32,000 nt of DNA, taken from contig JAUIDC010000001.1 of assembly GCA_030429145.1 (NCBI GenBank), positions 300,001 through 332,000 of the forward strand, in the 5' to 3' direction. The notes beneath the pieces are model-generated. The model had not been told where the DNA came from, did not search any database, and saw nothing but the letters and a program-made list of their open reading frames with translations. Origin of the DNA: Candidatus Saccharimonadota bacterium (GTDB taxonomy: Bacteria; Patescibacteriota; Gracilibacteria; Absconditabacterales; Absconditicoccaceae). This document shows positions 7,747 to 24,643 of the stretch, piece after piece; position 1 is the first letter of the stretch; each line of letters starts with the position of its first letter. Both the position numbers and the translations under genes were made by a program.

Positions 7747-8063
7747 ACAAAATGTTTTTGCCAATAATAAACAAAAATCCACACAATTGTGGTTTTACAA
7801 CACGCGTGAGCATTTCCATGTTTCATTAAAGATCTACCTTCCTCAGTCGCCAACAAATCAAGGCTGACGTACCTTCTATGCACATGGCTAGCACCGAGAG
7901 GTCACTGAAGCAAGTGAGCGAACTATTTCGCATCCAGCAGAGAAACTATAAGAAAGTCAGATACAATTGCAAGAGATTATAAAACTATTTGCAATGCTCC
8001 TCCCACATCTATATGATAGTAGCACGCAAAGACGCGTTATCGTTAACAAAAAAGATCTTTAAC

Positions 8064-9188
8064 ATGGCTCAAAAAGAAAAAAGGAGAAATCTGAAGTTCC
8101 CGGAAGTGGGACCCGATAGTTTTCACAATCTGGTAAAAAGAAGAGTGGACGAGTACTTTGCATCAAACAACATTGCAAAAACTGGAAATAAGGCACTCTA
8201 TCTGAAAACCATTTTTTGGTTTTCCTCATTTGTTATCGCGTACGTAGGTATTATCACTATTCCATACCTACAGATCGAATCAAACTTCGTTTTGTTTTGT
8301 CTCACTATGGTATGGTATGTCGCACTTGGTTATATCATTCCTGGCATAGGCATGGGAGTTATGCACGATGCGGCACACAATAGCTATAGTCAGAACAAAA
8401 GGCTCAACAAAATCATCGCTTTTTGGAGTGGAGACGCAATGGCAGCAAGCATGGTATCATGGCGCATTCAACACAACATTTTGCATCATACTTTTACCAA
8501 CGTTGATGACCAAGACAGTGATATTAAGAAATATCCGATGTTTCGATTTAGTCCGCATCATAAATGGCTCAGACATCATCAGTATCAACACCTATATGCA
8601 AGAGTCCTATATCTTTTCTTATCTATCTCATGGATCATCAATGATTTCACTCGAATACTCATTACGAAAAACATCTCGGGTAAAGAAATTAAGATCAGTA
8701 AGAAACAGATTCTGGAAATGCTTTTAGGGAAAGCTATACATTTGGGGCTATTTACATTCCCCCTGTTTATCCTTCCTCATGCTTGGTGGGGTATTGTAGG
8801 GTTCTTTGTGATGCATTTTATTGTCGGCTATATATTAGCCATTACGTTTCAACTCGCCCACGTGGTGGAACCTGCTGAATTTTTACAGGAACCAGAAGGA
8901 ACAGATGAGCTTGATATGCCATGGAGGGAGCATACGATGAGGACAACCGCAAATTTTGATCCTCACAACAAGCTTCTTACCTGGTATGTTGGTGGTTTAA
9001 ACTATCAGATAGAACACCACCTATTCCCGCAAATCTCTCATGTGCACTATCCAGCAATCAGACAGATTGTGAAAGAGACTGCACAAGAATGCGGACAGCC
9101 TTATCACGAATTCAAAACAAAGAAGGCTGCAAAACAATCTCACTTTGGACACCTTAAGCTATTAGGGCAAGCCCCTAAAGCCGCTTAG
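8064..9188 (+). CDS. Membrane fatty-acid desaturase, front-end (delta5/delta6/sphingolipid) type, no cytochrome b5 domain
   Basis: Histidine boxes HDAAHN, HNILHH and Q-type third box QIEHHLFP, with hydrophobic spans between them. Start set at MAQKEKRRNLKF (8064) inside track ORF 7989-9188. 374 aa, no in-frame TGA. Confidence 0.85.
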   Translation: MAQKEKRRNLKFPEVGPDSFHNLVKRRVDEYFASNNIAKTGNKALYLKTIFWFSSFVIAYVGIITIPYLQIESNFVLFCLTMVWYVALGYIIPGIGMGVMHDAAHNSYSQNKRLNKIIAFWSGDAMAASMVSWRIQHNILHHTFTNVDDQDSDIKKYPMFRFSPHHKWLRHHQYQHLYARVLYLFLSISWIINDFTRILITKNISGKEIKISKKQILEMLLGKAIHLGLFTFPLFILPHAWWGIVGFFVMHFIVGYILAITFQLAHVVEPAEFLQEPEGTDELDMPWREHTMRTTANFDPHNKLLTWYVGGLNYQIEHHLFPQISHVHYPAIRQIVKETAQECGQPYHEFKTKKAAKQSHFGHLKLLGQAPKAA

Positions 9189-10675: not shown

Positions 10676-10707
10676 TAAAAAAACACCAAGCCGAAGCCTG
10701 ATATTTT

Positions 10708-10784
10708 TGGTGGACCCTAGGAGATTCGAACTCCTCACCTCCTCGGTGCAAACGAGGCGCTCTAGCCAAATGAGCTAAGGGCCC
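10708..10784 (-). tRNA. tRNA-Ala (anticodon UGC), CCA encoded
   Basis: RC reads GGGCCCTTAGCTCATTTGGCTAGAGCGCCTCGTTTGCACCGAGGAGGTGAGGAGTTCGAATCTCCTAGGGTCCACCA. G3:U70 identity pair is present. Loop is TT-TGC-AC. Confidence 0.9.
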
Positions 10785-11178: not shown

Positions 11179-11406
11179 TTACTTCAATTGTAATCATGTT
11201 GGATCTGGCTGGACAAACTGTCCTCCAAAGATCATCATGATACCAATGACGATGATAATGAACCCAAGGATAATGATTCCTTGCATAGTGCCTCACAGGT
11301 TGTTCTCTGCTCGTGCTCGTCTCCCGAACATCTTAGTGAGCGATGACGAATAGAATATCATAGCGACACCTATACCTGCTACTAATAGCCCTCCAATGAC
11401 ACGCAT
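11179..11406 (-). CDS. Small two-TM membrane protein (75 aa)
   Basis: MRVIGGLLVAGIGVAMIFYSSSLTKMFGRRARAENNL-G-GTMQGIIILGFIIIVIGIMMIFGGQFVQPDPT-G-LQLK. Two hydrophobic helices. Only open under code 25. Confidence 0.45.
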
Positions 11407-11441: not shown

Positions 11442-11515
11442 AGCGAGCAACGGGACTTGAACCCGTACAGGCAGAGCTGAATTCTGCCATGCTACACCAA
11501 TTACATCATGCCCGC
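11442..11515 (-). tRNA. tRNA-Gly (anticodon UCA), the UGA decoder
   Basis: RC reads GCGGGCATGATGTAATTGGTGTAGCATGGCAGAATTCAGCTCTGCCTGTACGGGTTCAAGTCCCGTTGCTCGCT. Anticodon stem GCAGA/TCTGC, loop AT-TCA-GC. G1:C72, C2:G71, G3:C70 and U73 match bacterial glycine identity. 74 nt, normal cloverleaf (7-bp acceptor, 5-bp T stem), so not tRNA-Sec. Confidence 0.85.
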
Positions 11516-11536: not shown

Positions 11537-11564
11537 ACTATAGTAAAGTCGCATCCGTTTTCAA
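11537..11564 (-). promoter_or_regulatory. Predicted sigma70-type promoter directly upstream of tRNA-Gly(UCA)
   Basis: Minus strand TTGAAA (11559-11564), 16-nt spacer, TATAGT (11537-11542). The -10 element ends 21 nt before the tRNA 5' end. Confidence 0.35.
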
Positions 11565-11570
11565 GGTATT

Positions 11571-12332
11571 TTAATCCACAGCAACTCACCCATACGCACG
11601 CAGTTGTTCTCTGATCTGTATAAGTCTTTCTAGATAACTGTCTCTGAAAAGATCTACATTTGCAATGATGATATCTTCATTGCTTTCCAAAAGTGTTTGC
11701 AACTGAGTCAATGCTGTTACATATGCTTGTAGTCTCACTATAATAGCTTGATAGGCGTTCATGGAAATTCTCGCCTTTGTCTCACATGATCAAGCATCAA
11801 GAGAACGAGCGAGCCCCCTCTCCATAAGTCCACCATCGGCATCAGCAAGACCTTGAAAGAACTCATTGTCCGCCGCTGTTTTCTCAGCAGCACACTGCTG
11901 GTAGTCTTGCGATGCAGTCTCGCGATCGAGTTGCAGATCGGCTATAACCTGTTCTCATGCAAGTACAATTTTATTGACATTTTTGACATAGGTCTGCAGC
12001 GCTAGTCTCTTATTCGACGCATTTTGCAAATAGGCAACAACATTGTTTGCAAGCACTGCTTGTGCATCTGATAAAAGCTCTGTCGCTTGATTGAACGAGA
12101 TATTTGTCGCCACGCTCCTCTCTGTCAGCTCAAGATGTAACATCGTCACACCGATGACCGAATCATCGACAAGCCCCTTCTGCTGATAGACAGTAGGAGC
12201 AACCTGTTTCTGTGATGTCCATACGCCAAGCCACGAACCACCCTCTGCTGAGCGTGCTGAAAGTATAAGTGCAACGCACCCACCCAGCAATACCAGATAG
12301 AATAAAGGATGACTCACTACTTTACGTAGCAT
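11571..12332 (-). CDS. Bitopic membrane protein of unknown function (253 aa), last gene of the pilus-like operon
   Basis: Track ORF 11955-12332 extended through TGA 11955-11957, 11790-11792 and 11586-11588 to TAA 11571-11573 (every codon checked by hand). N-terminal TM is HPLFYLVLLGGCVALILSA. The rest is helical and Q/L/A-rich. Confidence 0.65.
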
Positions 12333-12359
12333 AACATAAATATAATGTAATTAAATTTT

Positions 12360-13466
12360 TTATCCACCCGCACCGATAGTATTTACCATATCGGCCATTG
12401 GCAAGAAGATAGACGCCACGATCACACCAATCACTACCGCAACTGATGCAAGAAGGATCGGCTCGACCAAACTCATCAGTGTCTTTATCTTTGTGTCTAA
12501 CAGATCGTTGTAGAACTGCGACATCTTTTCAAGGACCGTATCGATATTACCCGTACGCTCACCAACCAGTACAATCTGCACCAAGATCGGATCAAAAAGC
12601 TCTGACCCTTCCATACTATCCGAGAAGCCAAATCATGCTTCTAGGTCTCTTCTAATATCGAGTACTTTCTTTTTATAGTGATAGTTTGCCATAATAGCGG
12701 CAATCTGCTCAAGTGCTACTGTCGGGCTTACTCCAGCCTTATAGAAGTCACCGAGAAGCTTTGAAAATCTATACAGGTAGAATGTTTTGATTGCATCTTT
12801 TGCTGCTGGTATCTTCAACACAAGATCATCGATAAATATCTTGAAGAGAAGCATATTCTTATACAAGAATCTATAGAGCATAACTAAACCAAAGATAAGA
12901 AGCCCTATCCATCGCCATGAGACTTTCATAAAATCCGATGCTGCGATCACAAATTTTGTTACCGACGGCAATAGATCTGGATCGGGGAAAAGCGTTACAA
13001 TAGACGGGATCACCTTTACCAATAGAACCGCCACAGCAATAATAGCGAAGATCAAAAGGATAATCGGATAGGTCATTGCACTTTTAATCTTATTTCTCGT
13101 CTTCTGATAGTTCTCCAACTCCTCTGCAATATTGAGCAAAATTTCTGGCATATTACCAATCGACTCTGAAGCTCTTACGAGTTCTATCTCATCATTTCCA
13201 AAGAAGTGACGATATCTTTCCATCGCTGTCGCTAAACTAATACCTTCATTAATCTGTTCGAGCAACCCTTGGATGATAATCTTCATACCATAATTTCTCT
13301 CCGAGTGTAGGATAGAGTTAAGCGCCTCTTTCAAACCGAGTCACGCCTTTTGAGATACAGACAAAAGCCTGAAGAATACTGTTTTATTCTTCACTGTTGC
13401 ACGATTGAGACTAATCATCAATCATTCTAACATACTTGGCTTATTGCTCATCTTTGTATCAGCCAT
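12360..13466 (-). CDS. pilC: Type IV pilus / T2SS platform protein (PilC/GspF family)
   Basis: Joins track ORFs 12360-12614 and 12633-13334 and an N-terminal extension through TGA 12633-12635, 13341-13343 and 13422-13424. ...FFRLLSVSQKA-G-LGLKEAL... and a duplicated GspF-type domain with three TM spans. 368 aa. Confidence 0.9.
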
Positions 13467-13490: not shown

Positions 13491-14813
13491 CTATTTTTCT
13501 ACGTCTTTATGTTTTATCAGTCTGTAGAGTTCTTCCAGAGTAATCATTCCTTTTATCACCTTATAGATACCATCTCTTTCCAGGTTTGACATTCACTTAC
13601 TCAATGCAAATTTTTCTATCTCAAACGCTGTCTTTCCTTGCAACAACATGTTCTTCACATCATCAGTATACTCCATCACCTCAAAGATACCTATACGTCA
13701 CTTATATCATGATCCTCCACACACTGCACAGGTCTCTCCTGTCTTTGGATCTTTTCCTGAACCTACATGTAGTTTTCCGTCGAGGAAGTTTTGCCATTGC
13801 TCATTAGTGATACTTCTTTTTTTCATTTCATTGACAAGCGTATCTTTCGGTATACGAGAGATCTCCTCTCTTGCCCAGAAGTATTGCTTATCACTCTTCA
13901 TATCTACACTATGTCCACAGTTATGACATACTCTTCTTGAAAGACGCTGTGCCATTACGAAGTTAAATGTACCAGCAAGCATAAATGGCTTTGCACCTAG
14001 ATTGAGTACACGGGTAATGGTTTCTGCTGCTGAGTTCGTATGGATCGTAGAAAAGACCAGATGTCAGGTCATCGCCGCTTCCATCGACATTTCAAGCGTC
14101 TCCTTATCACGAATTTCTCAGACCATGATAATATCCGGGTCTTGACGCAGTGCGGCACGAAGACCTTGGGCAAAAGTATATCCAATATCTGCTCTCACCT
14201 GTGACTGAGAAAGACCGTCCATTTTGTTTTCCACCGGATCTTCATAGGTGATAATATTCACATCAACTTTGTTGATATGATCCAAAGCAGCATAGAGTGT
14301 CGCTGTTTTACCGGAACCGGTAGGTCCGGTATTAAGAATAATACCGTTTGGATAGTCTAGCTGACGTAGGATTTGCTCTTCAATCGTTCCCTCGATACCG
14401 AGTTCATTAAGTTTTTGTGTTTTTTTCGACTTATCCACAATACGCATCACGAGCTTCTCTCACCATACAGTTGGAAGTGTTGACGCACGAAGGTCGATCT
14501 CCTTATTGGTCAGTGTGATAGTAGAAACACGGGCATCCTGTGGCACACGTTTCTCATCGGGACGCATCTGCCCTGACTCAATCTTGAACTTCGCGATGAC
14601 TGACTCGTGAATATTTTTCGGATACTGGATAAGCTCAAAAAGTAGACCATCCACTCTCAGTCTTATTCTTCCGAAATTTTCAAACGGCTCAATATGGATA
14701 TCCGATGCTCCTTCTTCTACAGCGATCGTCAAAAGGTTGTCGAACAACTTAATCGTGTCCGCCTGTATGATCGACTCTTGTAGATTCTTCTTAAACTGAG
14801 CGATATCAGCCAT
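13491..14813 (-). CDS. pilB: Type IV pilus assembly ATPase (PilB/GspE family)
   Basis: Joins track ORFs 14460-14813, 14118-14450 and 13707-13982 through TGA 14460, 14118, 14064, 13707, 13698 and 13593. Walker A GPTGSGKT, Walker B DPDIIMV-G-EIRD, His box MT-G-HLVFSTIHTN, tetracysteine CHNCG...CAVCGGS-G-YK-G-RIGIFE. 440 aa, TAG at 13491-13493. Confidence 0.9.
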
Positions 14814-14842: not shown

Positions 14843-16255
14843 TTATTTGACGCCACAGAGACCTGCATCATCAAGCATTCTGTGGAGCTCAAAGAGCTTC
14901 GTTGTTTGTCTATATCTTGGGTATTGTGAGTATTCTGACTGTACATCTTCGAAGAGAAGTGCTAGGTCTGTAAGGTCCTTACTTTTTTCATTACTGAGTG
15001 TTGCGATACTTCCAAACTGCTTAGTATTTTCTTGCAGATATGAAAGTGCATTGTCTGGACTCATCGCCCTATCAGCAACAAAACAGTCTTTTCCAAGAGC
15101 CATAGCGATCTCATTGAGTTCTTGATCAGTGATAGCTCTACCGAACACGTCTATCTGAATCTTTCCGATGTATTGATCAGCATTACCCAATGTTCCAGCT
15201 TGTTTTTCAAACGAGAACTGTTTCACATTGATCACAGGAGGAAGATACTGAAGGAATGCTCTCAGCTGTCCTGCTGTATTGTTACCAGGGAAACCAAGGG
15301 TATATGCAAGTAGTGGAATAGATCTAAATTTCTCTCTAAACTTGAAGTAACAGAAAGCAAGATTGTTATCAGAACATCCTACTGTAGAGAGAACTGCATT
15401 ATCGATCATCGTTTCTGTTATTTCGATAGGTGTCTGTTCTGTCGAACCTTCCATCCAAAGATAGAGACTCTTTCCAATAGCTTGGTCTATATTTTGGCCA
15501 GTGTATGTTGGTTCATTTCTGAGCTTCAACTCCTCCCAAAGATTGTAGAGATACTCATTGATGAGAGAAATATTTCCTCTGTTTGACGTGATAGAGAGCT
15601 TATCTACTAACATCAGGAATGAACGCTTATTGCTCGAAGAGAATGATACATTGATAGGGATAACAAACGATCCATTTTCATTTTCAGTTAACGTACCGAT
15701 ACTAATATCATTGATTTCGTTATACTGTGTATTTCTACCAATATCTCTAAAGAAGTCTGTTCGGTGCGAGATCAGATTGTTATCAATATATGGGTTCTGA
15801 TCGAGGTATTTCTGACCTACAATCGAGAGGTCTATAGTGTCAGAGTATCTATCCTTCCAGATGTTCATAGAAGGGAAAAGGATGTATTGAAGGAAATATG
15901 CATATGGCTTTTGCAGTCTCTCAAAATAGTCGATAGAGATATCTTTTTCTGTCAGCGCCTCCTTATGGATAGCGATCAGATCATCTATATCTGTTACATC
16001 TTGCATAGCCTCTGCTGTCAGTGGATTGGTTTTCAATCCTTGCAGATTATAGAGTGATATGTCTGTCAGACTGCTACTCATAGCATTGAGCGATCTAAAG
16101 TTTCTTACAGCAACGCCCACAAAGAAAATTGCAAGAAGAATCGAAATCACCAAAATGACTTTTGCTATCCTCAGCACAGTAGTTTTTTTGAGAGAGAAAG
16201 AGAATTTCTTCTTCTCGTCACTGCTCTTGGCTTTAAAGATATTAAGTGATATCAT
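14843..16255 (-). CDS. Large bitopic membrane protein of unknown function (470 aa)
   Basis: Uninterrupted 470-codon ORF. Short cytoplasmic N-terminus, one TM (IAKVILVISILLAIFFVGVAV), about 420-aa external domain. Ends 30 nt upstream of pilB. No family recognised. Confidence 0.8.
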   Translation of the reverse strand: MISLNIFKAKSSDEKKKFSFSLKKTTVLRIAKVILVISILLAIFFVGVAVRNFRSLNAMSSSLTDISLYNLQGLKTNPLTAEAMQDVTDIDDLIAIHKEALTEKDISIDYFERLQKPYAYFLQYILFPSMNIWKDRYSDTIDLSIVGQKYLDQNPYIDNNLISHRTDFFRDIGRNTQYNEINDISIGTLTENENGSFVIPINVSFSSSNKRSFLMLVDKLSITSNRGNISLINEYLYNLWEELKLRNEPTYTGQNIDQAIGKSLYLWMEGSTEQTPIEITETMIDNAVLSTVGCSDNNLAFCYFKFREKFRSIPLLAYTLGFPGNNTAGQLRAFLQYLPPVINVKQFSFEKQAGTLGNADQYIGKIQIDVFGRAITDQELNEIAMALGKDCFVADRAMSPDNALSYLQENTKQFGSIATLSNEKSKDLTDLALLFEDVQSEYSQYPRYRQTTKLFELHRMLDDAGLCGVK

Positions 16256-16285
16256 GGTAGTAATAATAAGAGATAATAAAGTATA

Positions 16286-17866
16286 TTATTGCTGTGTTTG
16301 GTCAAAGTCATAGATTTCTCTTTGCGCATTCTTCTGTAGTGGAAGCGTGAAGTCAAATGCTGAGTTGTTTACCACGTACTCTTGGCTACCTATTCTGAGT
16401 TTCTTTTTGTTTACTTTTAGCGTCTGGAGATTGATTGGATCTGCCACAACGAACTTACTTTCTCTCAGGAGATTGATAATCTTCGTTGCAAGATAGATAT
16501 GAGGATTGAGGATACCTTTGTTCAAAAGCTGGAGCTCATCCTCTTGGAATGTATTGATATCAATACCAAATGAGATGTTGTTCTGTAGTGGATCAAAGTT
16601 TCTAATGTTGATTGCTAGACTTGGAAAGTCACTGTCCTCAAGCTGAGCGTCAAGGTAACTCATCAATATTGGGAAGACTCTTCTATCGATAGACGCATTC
16701 GCGTCTACATATGTATAGTAGTTTGAAAAGTCGTTCCCCTGAGGCATGGTACATGTATCAGCATTTACATATGGATTGAAGTAACATGTAGTAAGATAAT
16801 TTTGTATATCCTTTTCACCTCTACTTCTATATGCAGTGAGCATAGCCTCTACCTGTGATGTTGGAAGAGATATAAAGCTACCGAACTGCTGGATAAATGT
16901 ATCAAGATTGGTAAAGAACGTCAGTGCTGTTGAAAATCTAATAGCCTCTACCGCAATCAATGATTTCTGCAATGAGTTGTCCATAAAGGTTGACTCTGCA
17001 AAAAGCTGTACATCCTTCGGGAAGAAACCGTATCCTCCGATATCTTGCTTGATCTCATCAAGTTTCTGATATTGTGTAGCTGTGCTTCTTGCAAGCTGTT
17101 CTACACTCCTGTCAAGCACCTCTTTCTTAATAACATAGCTCAGAGACTTGTCGCTCACGATGGCATTGAGAGACATCTCTGCATTTGCTGTAGTAAGACT
17201 ATCAATACCATATGTATCAGGATTTTGTCCAATAAGAGTACTAATAGTCGAATATGACTTATCTATCGTTGGCATGTAGTAGTCAACCATGTTTGGTACG
17301 CTCTTTCCTTGGATGTGACGAAGATATTGTTGGAACACATAACCAACAAACGCGATAAGAAGAAACACGAGAGTGAGCATCACTACTCTAGTCATCCTCT
17401 TGAAAAAGAGTCTTTCGAAAACTGCTTGCTGCATCGCCTTATCTTTTGCAGAATCTTGTTTCTCAACCTTGAAATCTATCTTACTCGCCTCTTTTTTTGT
17501 CGCAGTGAAAGAGTCTACCGCAGCCGTCAATCCTGACAGATCCAAATCGTCATCACCAGTTGCTTTCTCCTCTGCCTTTGCATCTGCTTCTTGTGAGTCT
17601 GTTTTTTGTAGTTCAGCATTGTCAGCTTTTTCCTCTGAAGCCTTAGCCGCTGGCGCTTCAGCCGCTTCGTTTTTTACTGGCGTCTCATCTGGTCATGCAA
17701 AAAGCTTTGAAGATGTTTCCTGTAGACCGTCTGAAGCATTTTGTGCTTCAGCAGTCTCAGCCACATTTTCGTTTTGTTTACCACCTGCGATATCATCGAG
17801 AGAACCAAGTGTTCCCTGTGACTCCTGTGGTGTGTTTTGGTTTGTGTTTTTTGTATTTTCTGCCAT
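16286..17866 (-). CDS. Large bitopic membrane protein of unknown function (526 aa) with acidic low-complexity N-terminus
   Basis: Track ORF 16286-17545 (TTG artefact start) extended in frame through one TGA to the ATG at 17866. MAENTKNTNQNTPQESQ...AEAPAAKASEEKADNAELQKTDSQEADAKAEEKATGDDDLDLSG..., then a TM (VVMLTLVFLLIAFVGYVF) and about 350 external residues. Confidence 0.7.
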
Positions 17867-17901
17867 CTGATAGAGATCAGCATATAAAGATTACACCTAC
17901 A

Positions 17902-19141: not shown

Positions 19142-19186
19142 TAATTACAATTGTTTTCATAGCACACATACATACACTATGAAATA

Positions 19187-20620
19187 ATGCACGATAATTA
19201 CAAACAGCTTATTGAAAAGATACTTCCTGACCCTCACGAATGTGAGGAGTTTTTTGCATGTTATCATGAGATCCTTCCGAGAAGCATCAAGATTATCGAG
19301 CACAAGATCACTGCTGAGGAATTTATGTCATATACAAAATGATTGGGTTGGAAGCTACAACCCCCCGGTTTTAGTAGTGACAATGACAGTCGATATATCG
19401 AAAGAGAAGATGAGTCAGAAGCCTTGGGCAAACACTGGTTGCATGCCGATGGATTCTTCTATATCCAAGAGGTTGCAGCATCATTGGCTGTGCATGCCTT
19501 GGATATTCAGCCAGGAGACAAAGTGCTCGATATGTGCGCCGCACCGGGCGGGAAATCAGTTCAGATAGCTGACGAGCTTTTAACAGCCGGTGCGGCATCG
19601 CCCTGACTGGTCGTCAGCAATGAAGTGAGCGGCACAAGGATCGTAGCTCTGCAAAGCAATCTCAACAGAACCTGATCATACAATACAGCTGTCACTCAGC
19701 TCGACGGCGCACAGTTCGGCAACCTCACTCCCAATTTCTTTGACAAGGTACTTGTTGATGCTCCTTGCTCAGGAGAATGAACAGGATTCAAGTCTGACGC
19801 TGCAACTAAATGGCGAAGAGAAGAAAATGTCCAAAAGATAGCAAGGCTCCAATACTCTCTTCTGACATCGGCCATCAAAGCGTGTAAACCATGAGGCCAG
19901 CTCATCTATGCAACATGCACTCTCAATCCTTGGGAAAACGAGTGAGTGCTCGTTAAAGCACTCGAAGAATTTTCTGATATTATCACACTCGAGCCGGTCA
20001 ACCTACACGATAAATCCATCGGACTTACAACATTTGATGAAGAGCCTCTACTTACCAGTTCAGATGCTCAGAAAGTTGCTCGTTTCCGACCGCATCGCCA
20101 GCACACATGATGATTCTTTATAGCAAAATTGCACAAGCATCAAGAGACATCGGACAAAGCAAAGAAAGAAAAGAAACCTATCAAAAAAAACAAACTCGAT
20201 ATCTCCCCATGACTGCAAAAACAGATCACGAAAATGCTTGCTGACGACTTCGGCATCACCGTCGACCCCGACAAACATTTTTTTGCATCGACCAATAAAC
20301 AGGTCTATCTTCTTACCCCCCTCTACAAGGAGCTTGAAGAAATCTTATACGTGGAAAAAAGCGGCGTCCCTATTTTCAAACGACACAACCCCACCAATCT
20401 GCACCCTGTACACGGACTTGGCGTGACTCTTGGTCACTTAGCGACGAAGAACACCATACAATTGACACCCGAAGAGTGCCAAAAATACAGTGAAGGCTTT
20501 GATCTCACCACCAGCGCTGAGGTTTCAACGAAGCACAAATACGCTATTCTCAAACGAGAACACTATGGATTTTCTGTCGGGAAAGTGGTGTGAACTACCT
20601 TAAAAAATAAGTTTCAGAAA
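19187..20620 (+). CDS. rsmF: NOL1/NOP2/Sun-family rRNA m5C methyltransferase, RsmF-like architecture
   Basis: Joins track ORFs 19343-19606 and 20234-20593 to the ATG at 19187, with ten in-frame TGA. SAM motif [10 protein letters not shown], catalytic DAPCSGE-G-TGF (TGA 19778-19780), [21 protein letters not shown] (tandem TGA 20108-20113). 477 aa, TAG at 20618-20620. Confidence 0.85.
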
Positions 20621-20636
20621 TAGATTCAATTCGTGA

Positions 20637-23949: not shown

Positions 23950-24462
23950 TTATTCTCCAAACAATCATACCTGACCACGCACTTTTTCTCTTATGTTCTT
24001 TTCATTTACCGGTAGAACTATCTTAGGCTGCTTCGCAGCCGCACTACGTGCCAACTTATCTACTCTATTATTGAGCTCGTCATCTGCATGTCACTTTACC
24101 CAATGTCGCTCCAATGTGAAGAGAGGCAATAGCTCATTGAGCTTCTCCCAGAGATCTCTGTTTGCAACTGGCTTTTTATTTGCCAGTCTTCGTCCTCTCT
24201 GTATTCGATATTTCAATCTTTCTACTCCCTCTTTTACATATTTACTATCCAAATGTATATGAATATTTTCATTCGGCGCTCCTTTTTCTTTGAGATAGTG
24301 CAATCATTCGATAACAGCCATAAGCTCCATTCTATTATTTGTCGTCAACGGCTCTCCTCCAGAAATCGACTTTCTCTTTCCTTCAGCAATTATCAAAGCT
24401 CCTCGTCATCACTGACCAGGGTTTCCCAAACTACTTCCATCTGTATAGATCTGTATCTTCAC
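23950..24462 (-). CDS. rnhA: Ribonuclease HI
   Basis: GTG start at 24462. [59 protein letters not shown]...[23 protein letters not shown]. Tandem TGA at 24406-24411. 170 aa, TAA at 23950-23952. Confidence 0.85.
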
Positions 24463-24643
24463 TAATTTCGTAGTTACCTTGTAAACTGCTTCACAATATA
24501 TACATATAAAACTAATAAACAACTCATATCATCCTTTAACTACGAGCTGTGTGGTATAGGTCATATCCGGCATGTGGTATTACTATTTGTAAATAGTCAT
24601 ACCGAAAATCTCTATAGTTCTACCAGCAACACACACCCATCTC

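Follow-up and report, generated by a model that had tools for sequence, protein, structure and literature searches.

Which amino acid is carried by a tRNA whose anticodon pairs with UGA, and what does UGA mean in the genome that encodes it? These questions are raised by a tRNA gene with a UCA anticodon that lies in the stretch of DNA analysed here, 32,000 nucleotides of contig JAUIDC010000001.1 (positions 300,001 to 332,000 of the forward strand) from the Candidatus Saccharimonadota assembly GCA_030429145.1. We refer to this whole stretch as the window and number all positions from its first letter. The gene in question is the following:

11442..11515, minus strand: tRNA-Gly(UCA), 74 nt (ARAGORN and Rfam RF00005)

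This gene is almost certainly the tRNA-Gly(UCA) of genetic code 25, the code of the Absconditabacterales/SR1 branch in which UGA is a glycine codon. The finding is a correct rediscovery: both the reassignment of UGA to glycine and the dedicated tRNA have been known since 2013, the two together have been used as a diagnostic ever since, and nothing biologically new is added to them here. The code in which UGA means glycine and has its own tRNA-Gly(UCA) corresponds to NCBI translation table 25. Nearly identical tRNA(UCA) genes occur in SR1 genomes, where they are described as an additional tRNA-Gly(UCA) (Kantor et al. 2013, PMC3812714), and glycylation of the SR1 tRNA-Gly(UCA) by glycyl-tRNA synthetase (GlyRS) is credited to Campbell 2013 in the summary given by a 2026 review (PMC13293708), which traces the UGA reassignment to the common ancestor of the lineage. 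The same code is used by V. lugosii (Moreira et al. 2021, PMC8080830), and the tRNA(UCA) has been classed as a glycine tRNA by the rule G1:C72, C2:G71, G3:C70 and U73 (Shulgina & Eddy 2021, PMC8629427). Near-identical tRNAs, synteny and a CGA-to-tryptophan signal, all described below, place the host within the Absconditabacterales/Gracilibacteria clade (GTDB class JAEDAM01).

The tRNA and its identity nucleotides

Of the six tRNA genes that ARAGORN predicts in the window, each on the minus strand, one spans 11442-11515 and has the anticodon tca. The general tRNA model of Rfam, RF00005, returns the same coordinates (E = 4.8e-9, 53.7 bits) and is the winner within its clan, and a degenerate pattern for the UCA tRNA matches the window once and none of 100 shuffled versions. 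The 5' part of the molecule reads GCGGGCA UG AUGU AAUUGGUGUA GCAU G GCAGA AU-UCA-GC and the 3' part UCUGC CUGU ACGGG UUCAAGU CCCGU UGCUCGC U, the 3' CCA being absent from the gene. The preliminary description of this locus, made from the letters alone, had proposed a 74-nt cloverleaf with the anticodon loop AU-UCA-GC, and the agreement between the two programs bears this out.

Read directly from the sequence, the acceptor stem begins G1:C72, C2:G71, G3:C70, G4:U69 and the discriminator is U73, so that the full glycine identity set claimed at the outset is indeed present. The acceptor stem has 7 bp, the D stem 4 bp and the T stem 5 bp, with a variable region of 3-4 nt. In the anticodon loop we find A32, U33, G37 and C38, and a Watson-Crick pair between G26 and C44 extends the anticodon stem to 6 bp.

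UGA codons fall at glycine positions

Reading TGA as a sense codon converts the fragmented ORFs (open reading frames) obtained with translation table 11, under which about half of the genes in the window break up at TGA codons, into a dense set of full-length genes. To learn which amino acid these codons specify, TGA was translated as X and three proteins were aligned to homologues of solved structure. In the pilus assembly ATPase PilB, all six TGA positions face glycine in three homologues (in the motifs fGEKvV, IMiGEIRD, LTGHLV, GYrGR, which contributes two, and rlGM). In RNase H, three of the four face glycine (the pair in GNPG-GG and the one in VKGHA) and the fourth faces alanine in a variable column. 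In RsmF, glycine is faced by the TGA codons of CSGE-G and of the nrt-G position, by the latter of an adjacent pair (EG-FF) and by one after the motif-I loop, with the other TGA positions of this protein lying in variable columns. None of the roughly 20 aligned TGA positions in the three proteins faces tryptophan or cysteine, and RNase H and RsmF use TGG or CGA, and not TGA, for their conserved tryptophans.

An independent check from within the lineage comes from a small ORF that follows the tRNA gene: in its orthologues, TGA and GGN alternate at conserved glycine columns. In the window as a whole TGA makes up 80 of 7201 codons and 80 of the 501 glycine-type codons (16%). The 29 ORF models end in TAA (22) or TAG (7) and none in TGA, a result that partly follows from the way in which ORFs were defined. 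No prfB gene, which would encode release factor 2 (RF2), is found in the 32-kb window, although the window says little about the whole genome. The proposal that this tRNA is the physical decoder of UGA as glycine is thus upheld on four counts, namely TGA codons that face conserved glycines, a retained identity set, identical or near-identical tRNAs in relatives, and published work that applies the same identity rule and reports glycylation of the SR1 tRNA.

TGA use itself varies, both between genomes and between genes. Across the loci of the 74-nt tRNA family described below, whose GC content runs from 0.23 to 0.42, the share of TGA among glycine codons rises as GC falls, from about 16-22% in the window (GC 0.41) to 75-84% at GC 0.23-0.29, for example in V. 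lugosii. Within the window the average is 11 TGA per 1000 codons but the distribution is very uneven. Two long pilus-cluster genes of unknown function (14843-16285 and 16286-17890, both minus strand, 470 and 526 aa), the fatty-acid desaturase gene (7983-9188, plus strand, 391 aa) and every highly expressed housekeeping gene, including those for ribosomal proteins, rpoA and clpP, contain none or one, whilst other genes contain 6-10. The pattern could mean that TGA is avoided where expression is high, or that some of the genes were acquired recently.

A second codon also behaves unusually. In RNase H (23950-24579, minus strand) and RsmF (19163-20623, plus strand), CGA codons occupy positions at which homologues have a conserved tryptophan or another aromatic residue: LE[CGA]HWVKxH in RNase H aligns with IKWEWVKGH of the E. 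coli enzyme, QRG[CGA]RLANKKP with KRGWKTADKKP and Gxx[CGA]GA with GGYGA, and ARF[CGA]PH in RsmF aligns with RIWPH and RLWPH. Conserved arginines in the same two proteins use codons other than CGA. Both CGA and CGG are rare, with 26 and 5 occurrences respectively in the 7201 codons. Reassignment of CGA/CGG to tryptophan has been predicted for Absconditabacteria (Shulgina & Eddy 2021, PMC8629427), and the CGA pattern in the window matches that prediction. For annotation, this contig requires gene prediction under translation table 25, and caution is needed with CGA, probably together with CGG, as a likely tryptophan codon.

Conservation of the tRNA in related genomes

A first scan used a degenerate pattern combining a glycine-type acceptor, a UCA anticodon and a T arm, with positions 1-5 and 70-73 fixed. 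It matched at least 119 GTDB species representatives, and the matches listed fall mostly in records titled Gracilibacteria, Absconditabacteria, SR1, 'Peribacteria' or Patescibacteria. Two families of tRNA(UCA) can be distinguished among them, one of 74 nt (30 loci plus the window) and one of 76 nt (69 loci). All eight listed records titled Absconditabacter*, SR1 or Vampirococcus have the 74-nt type. The window tRNA is 100% identical to that of at least six GTDB species representatives, such identity being seen at nine of the loci; it matches the tRNA of Ca. Vampirococcus lugosii at 73/74 positions and that of an SR1 metagenome-assembled genome (MAG) at 69/74. The flanks of the identical tRNAs are only about 67-79% identical to those in the window, which points to strong purifying selection on the tRNA. 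Even the best relatives do not exceed about 72-79% in these flanks, and the species of the window is not among the genomes retrieved. Gene order is retained as well. The sequence tRNA(UCA), small ORF, tRNA-Tyr, tRNA-Ala is found at nine loci, and the larger neighbourhood that includes the pil operon recurs in many relatives, some of which have tRNA-Arg, tRNA-Glu and tRNA-Leu further along the islet.

Base pairing was counted on a gap-free alignment of the 74-nt family only, since aligning both families with MAFFT placed their length difference inside the anticodon loop. Over 20 distinct 74-nt sequences, 99.5% of cells in the cloverleaf are paired and ten pairs show compensatory changes; none of 500 shuffles did as well, and slid controls were 39-47% paired.

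Because the first pattern fixed positions 1-5 and 70-73, the census was repeated in a metagenome collection with a pattern anchored on the D arm and the anticodon, leaving the acceptor stem unconstrained. At least 120 metagenome contigs carry the same D arm with UCA, and the counts that follow refer to the 115 full-length copies listed among them. G1:C72 and U73 are kept in all 115, C2:G71 in 114 and G3:C70 in 112, whilst pairs 4:69, 5:68, 6:67 and 7:66 covary freely. Identity pairs that are held while their neighbours in the same stem covary are the signature expected if selection preserves the glycine identity set. In the anticodon loop, G37 and C38 are present in 115/115 copies and position 32 is C in 103 and A in 12. 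The preliminary description had drawn attention to A32 and G37: both are present in the window, but only G37 is invariant, A32 being one of two alternatives in the family.

The 26:44 pair also covaries. Among the 20 distinct sequences it is G:C in ten, A:U in nine and unpaired in one, and among the metagenomic copies it is A:U in 103, G:C in 11 and G:U in one; the 74-nt family therefore has a 6-bp anticodon stem. Neither the tRNA-Ala (G26/A44) nor the tRNA-Arg (A26/A44) of the window has such a pair, and we found no mention of a 6-bp anticodon stem for tRNA-Gly(UCA) in the literature consulted. The window tRNA represents the minority A32/G26:C44 variant of its family, with the G4:U69 wobble in addition.

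Comparison with the 76-nt tRNA of the BD1-5-type Gracilibacteria

When set against the tRNA-Gly(UCA) of SR1/Absconditabacteria, that of V. lugosii included, the window tRNA shows no substantial difference: the 74-nt body, the identity set, G37-C38 and the neighbourhood of tRNA-Tyr, tRNA-Ala and pilus operon are all the same. The 76-nt family is the tRNA(UCA) of BD1-5-type Gracilibacteria (Rinke 2013; Hanke 2014, PMC4032931). It shares with the window tRNA the UCA anticodon, C38, U73 and the role of reading UGA as glycine, together with a U13-G22 wobble in an A/U-rich D stem and a potential 6-bp anticodon stem; its acceptor likewise starts GCGGG, a feature imposed by the search pattern. Elsewhere the two differ. 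The 76-nt tRNA has A37 instead of G37, always has C32, has a D loop without G18-G19 (AAAAGAGTGA) and carries one extra nucleotide before the anticodon stem and another in the variable region. Its identity to the window tRNA is about 51/76, and its neighbourhood is often different, with a tRNA-Arg(GCG). One MAG, the locus L039 that lacks the 26:44 pair, is intermediate, having a D arm of the 74-nt type, an anticodon loop of the 76-nt type and an encoded CCA. It is the sole intermediate among the matches listed.

Proposed decoding of UGA and limits of the case

The steps by which UGA would come to be read as glycine can be set out as follows. A sigma-70-like promoter within the 55-nt gap that follows the pilus gene cluster would drive transcription of the tRNA, and this transcription probably runs on into the small membrane-protein ORF downstream and may reach tRNA-Tyr and tRNA-Ala. 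The tRNA would be freed by RNase P and 3' processing, and CCA would be added post-transcriptionally because it is not encoded. GlyRS would then recognise U73 together with G1:C72, C2:G71 and G3:C70 and charge the tRNA with glycine, the anticodon U34-C35-A36 would pair with UGA so that in-frame UGA is read as glycine, and termination would be left to UAA and UAG only. Of these elements, we infer or take from the literature the glycylation by GlyRS, the expression and structure of the transcript, the absence of RF2 and the avoidance of UGG by U34.

Nothing in the results contradicts the reading as a glycine tRNA outright; three observations set limits to it. For the E. coli GlyRS, C36 is reportedly an anticodon identity element; the tRNA described here has A36 in its place, and recognition by GlyRS must tolerate this change. 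One locus (L182, contig PDWI01006410.1) combines the 74-nt body with the acceptor stem GUCUUUG/CAGAGAC, in which U2:A71 and C3:G70 form a non-glycine set although U73 is kept. Finally, the best identity of a tRNA-Gly(GCC) of the lineage to the window tRNA is 51/74, no better than that of tRNA-Leu or tRNA-Tyr. Set against 328 further tRNAs, taken from related loci as well as from the window, the UCA tRNA scores about 50-55/74 with Leu, Tyr, Ser and Gly(GCC) alike. Whole-sequence identity is thus uninformative, and the glycine identity rests on the determinants and on the codon evidence.

Other identities for a UCA tRNA

Four other identities can be considered, of which the least improbable, though still very unlikely, is that the gene is an opal suppressor or pseudo-tRNA, derived for example from a mobile element or phage, in a genome where UGA remains mainly a stop codon. 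Glycine-like UCA tRNAs do turn up sporadically in records from Gemmatimonadales, Alphaproteobacteria, Akkermansia and Archangium, and phage-borne suppressor tRNAs are known (bioRxiv 10.1101/2021.08.26.457843). The gene described here, however, occupies a chromosomal locus between ribosomal-protein genes, the pilus operon and rRNA genes, and this locus is syntenic across many species. The complete conservation of the tRNA between flanks that have diverged to about 67-79% identity counts against a suppressor of this kind, and every gene model in the window can do without TGA as a stop codon. A scan of viral contigs gave four matches, one of them with UCA and none belonging to the 74-nt or 76-nt family.

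Less probable again, to the point of being negligible, is a tRNA-Sec that decodes a few UGA codons as selenocysteine (Sec), assisted by SelB and a selenocysteine insertion sequence (SECIS). ARAGORN does print 'tRNA-SeC' for this gene, and bacterial tRNA-Sec (selC) has the same UCA anticodon and reads UGA, but the label is set by the anticodon alone, and in Rfam the clan is won by the general tRNA model and not by that for tRNA-Sec. In bacteria, a tRNA-Sec combines 8+5 stems with a 6-bp D stem, G73 and a long variable arm. None of the selC features, that is the 8/5 stems, the long variable arm, G73 or dependence on SECIS and SelB, applies to the window tRNA, with its 7/5 stems, 4-bp D stem, variable region of 3-4 nt and U73, and its lack of Sec geometry was correctly recognised in the preliminary description. 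Nor do 80 UGA codons in 7201, spread over most genes and falling at glycine positions, resemble rare SECIS-directed sites.

We give equally little credence to a tRNA-Trp(UCA) of the kind found in code-4 organisms such as Mycoplasmatales, Hodgkinia and several insect endosymbionts. These organisms likewise read UGA as sense, have small genomes and stop at UAA and UAG, so that a UCA anticodon, TGA codons that are read through and a small, AT-leaning genome fit code 4 as they fit code 25; gene callers often choose code 4 for such contigs (PMC3812714). The amino acid is what differs. The code-4 tRNA carries tryptophan and has G73 plus other tryptophan determinants, and the tryptophan rule of PMC8629427 requires G73, whereas the window tRNA has U73 and a G:C pair at 1:72. 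The absence of tryptophan identity that had been noted from the discriminator is borne out by the codons: none of the roughly 20 aligned TGA positions faces tryptophan, the conserved ones face glycine, and TGG or CGA is used for the conserved tryptophans of RNase H and RsmF.

U73 is common to the glycine and cysteine identity sets. A tRNA-Cys(GCA) derivative in which U had replaced G34, giving UGA the meaning cysteine that it has in the nuclear code of Euplotes, would need one substitution only (GCA to UCA) and would stay within the Cys/Trp codon box, but it can be dismissed for practical purposes, as no TGA position aligns with cysteine, C2:G71 and G3:C70 form the glycine pattern and the tRNA-Cys(GCA) bodies of the lineage differ, the best match being 49/74.

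Can the anticodon arm keep UGG apart from UGA?

If the gene is the tRNA-Gly(UCA) of code 25, its U34 faces an ambiguity of its own. A U34 that reads UGG as well as UGA may do no harm in code 4, but in code 25 reading UGG would put glycine in place of tryptophan (PMC8629427), and this wobble ambiguity between UGA (glycine) and UGG (tryptophan) has been raised for code 25 by the same authors (Shulgina & Eddy). The anticodon arm of the Absconditabacterales tRNA could be a specialised device through which U34 reads UGA and refuses UGG, an idea that we regard as speculative and rather doubtful. The features that may be involved are the invariant G37 that follows A36, the invariant C38 opposite A32 or C32, and the covarying 26:44 pair with its 6-bp stem.

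G37 is unusual in a tRNA that reads a codon starting with U, and A36-G37 is not a canonical substrate for TrmD, which normally requires G36-G37. Position 32 is said to tune third-base discrimination in tRNA-Gly(UCC). By analogy, the 6-bp stem would mirror the 4-bp anticodon stems that loosen UGA decoding by tRNA-Trp(CCA). The sister lineage BD1-5 has the differently built tRNA with A37, and each branch may have found its own solution to the problem. The residual value of the locus is in our view mechanistic, the invariant G37-C38 and the covarying 26:44 pair being concrete, testable features for UGG avoidance.

Origin of the tRNA

It had been suggested that the tRNA arose by mutation of the anticodon of a glycine isoacceptor. 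This finds no support. In the metagenome collection, the D arm of the 74-nt family is found with an NCC anticodon in no contig, the positive control with UCA giving at least 120, and tRNA-Gly(GCC) is no closer to the window tRNA than are other tRNAs. A recent duplication of a tRNA-Gly(NCC) followed by a change of anticodon is therefore not supported by these comparisons, whilst an ancient origin from tRNA-Gly(UCC) is possible. A blastn search with the tRNA against all complete E. coli genomes gave no match, the 74-nt query being too short and too divergent.

A separate set of unusual genes came to light in records from phyla that use the standard code, all of them of the tRNA-Gly(UCC) type. 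Four have a UCA anticodon, four others have a 6-nt anticodon loop, CUUCAA, that is one base short, and a further locus (L072) belongs to the same set. The source records are titled Gemmatimonadales, Alphaproteobacteria, Akkermansia, Archangium, Ramlibacter, Bradyrhizobium and others, and most of these genes adjoin tRNA-Tyr in a Thr-Tyr-Gly-Thr cluster. Errors of assembly or in homopolymers could explain them; alternatively, they could be natural suppressors of opal codons or frameshifts.

Candidate promoter, probable transcription unit and neighbouring genes

The tRNA gene stands between a pilus gene cluster and two further tRNA genes. In the direction of transcription, its neighbours are as follows:

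13491..14813, minus strand: PilB/GspE-type assembly ATPase with six TGA codons (PDB PilB 3jc8, E = 2.5e-90)
12360..13466, minus strand: PilC/GspF-type platform protein with three TGA codons (Pfam T2SSF PF00482, E = 1.5e-50, two domains)
11571..12350, minus strand: final ORF of the pilus cluster, encoding about 253 aa and containing three TGA codons in frame, with its stop codon 55 nt before the tRNA
11537..11564, minus strand: candidate sigma-70-like promoter (consensus scan, 10/12)
11179..11406, minus strand: small ORF of 75 aa with two predicted transmembrane segments and two in-frame TGA codons
11075..11159, minus strand: tRNA-Tyr(GUA), 19 nt downstream of the small ORF (ARAGORN and Rfam)
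10708..10784, minus strand: tRNA-Ala(UGC), last gene of the tRNA islet (ARAGORN; Rfam, 62.4 bits)
10679..10708, minus strand: terminator-like hairpin with a 13-pair stem and T-rich tail, right after tRNA-Ala (pattern scan)

The PilC/T2SSF protein and the PilB-type ATPase confirm the position downstream of a pilus-like operon, and the ARAGORN calls confirm a tRNA islet in which tRNA-Tyr and tRNA-Ala lie downstream on the same strand, both as first described. No Pfam match was found for the ORF at 11571-12350. Three N-methyl pseudopilins are encoded elsewhere in the window.

A TTGAAA-16-TATAGT element had been reported 21 nt upstream of the tRNA, and the consensus scan recovers it. The -35 hexamer TTGAAA (11564-11559) is separated by a 16-nt spacer from the -10 hexamer TATAGT (11542-11537), which ends 21 nt before the tRNA 5' end and lies within the 55-nt gap after the last pilus-cluster ORF. 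Taken singly such a match is weak, since 2 kb contain ten of them against 4.2 +/- 2.0 in shuffles. Its position is more telling. A match of at least 9/12 that ends 15-35 nt before the tRNA is present at 19 of the 31 loci of the 74-nt family. In 500 shuffles the average is 4.2 loci and the maximum 12, and a displaced anchor gives four; the statistic is somewhat inflated by the kinship of these loci. The TTG + TA core is found at 20/31 loci, with a spacer of 16 nt in most. In three relatives the tRNA(UCA) directly follows a tRNA-Lys gene instead. On this comparative evidence the TTGAAA-16-TATAGT element is a real, positionally conserved promoter-like element.

That the promoter is dedicated to the tRNA, as had also been claimed, is an overstatement. 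The tRNA is separated by 35 nt from the start of the small ORF, an interval that contains no terminator, and a gap of 19 nt separates the ORF from tRNA-Tyr. At 27 of the 30 loci of the 74-nt family with enough downstream sequence, an orthologous ORF (66-83 aa) begins 12-61 nt after the tRNA; this distance is too short for a terminator and a promoter, making a dedicated promoter doubtful. The orthologues share the motif ...YxS...(F/M)GR..(R/W)AE..L(G/x)(G/x)T..., and the 75-aa ORF matches no Pfam family. The small ORF is probably co-transcribed with the tRNA, to judge from this spacing. The first strong terminator-like hairpin after the tRNA(UCA) comes only after tRNA-Ala and is a candidate for the end of the transcription unit (10679-10708), which we infer most likely to consist of the promoter, tRNA-Gly(UCA), the small ORF and possibly tRNA-Tyr and tRNA-Ala.

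We considered whether the small ORF might act as a TGA-rich 'sensor' or leader for the supply of tRNA-Gly(UCA). This was rejected, as its TGA share is at background: TGA accounts for 43% of glycine codons in the small ORF and 44% in long ORFs of the same loci, and enrichment reached p < 0.05 in only one of the 29 loci tested.

The rRNA genes of the window, also on the minus strand, lie in the order 23S (30897-27947), 5S (27888-27772) and 16S (27686-26196). There is no 16S gene within 1.1 kb upstream of the 23S gene, and the location of the 16S gene downstream of the 5S gene makes this an unusual order.

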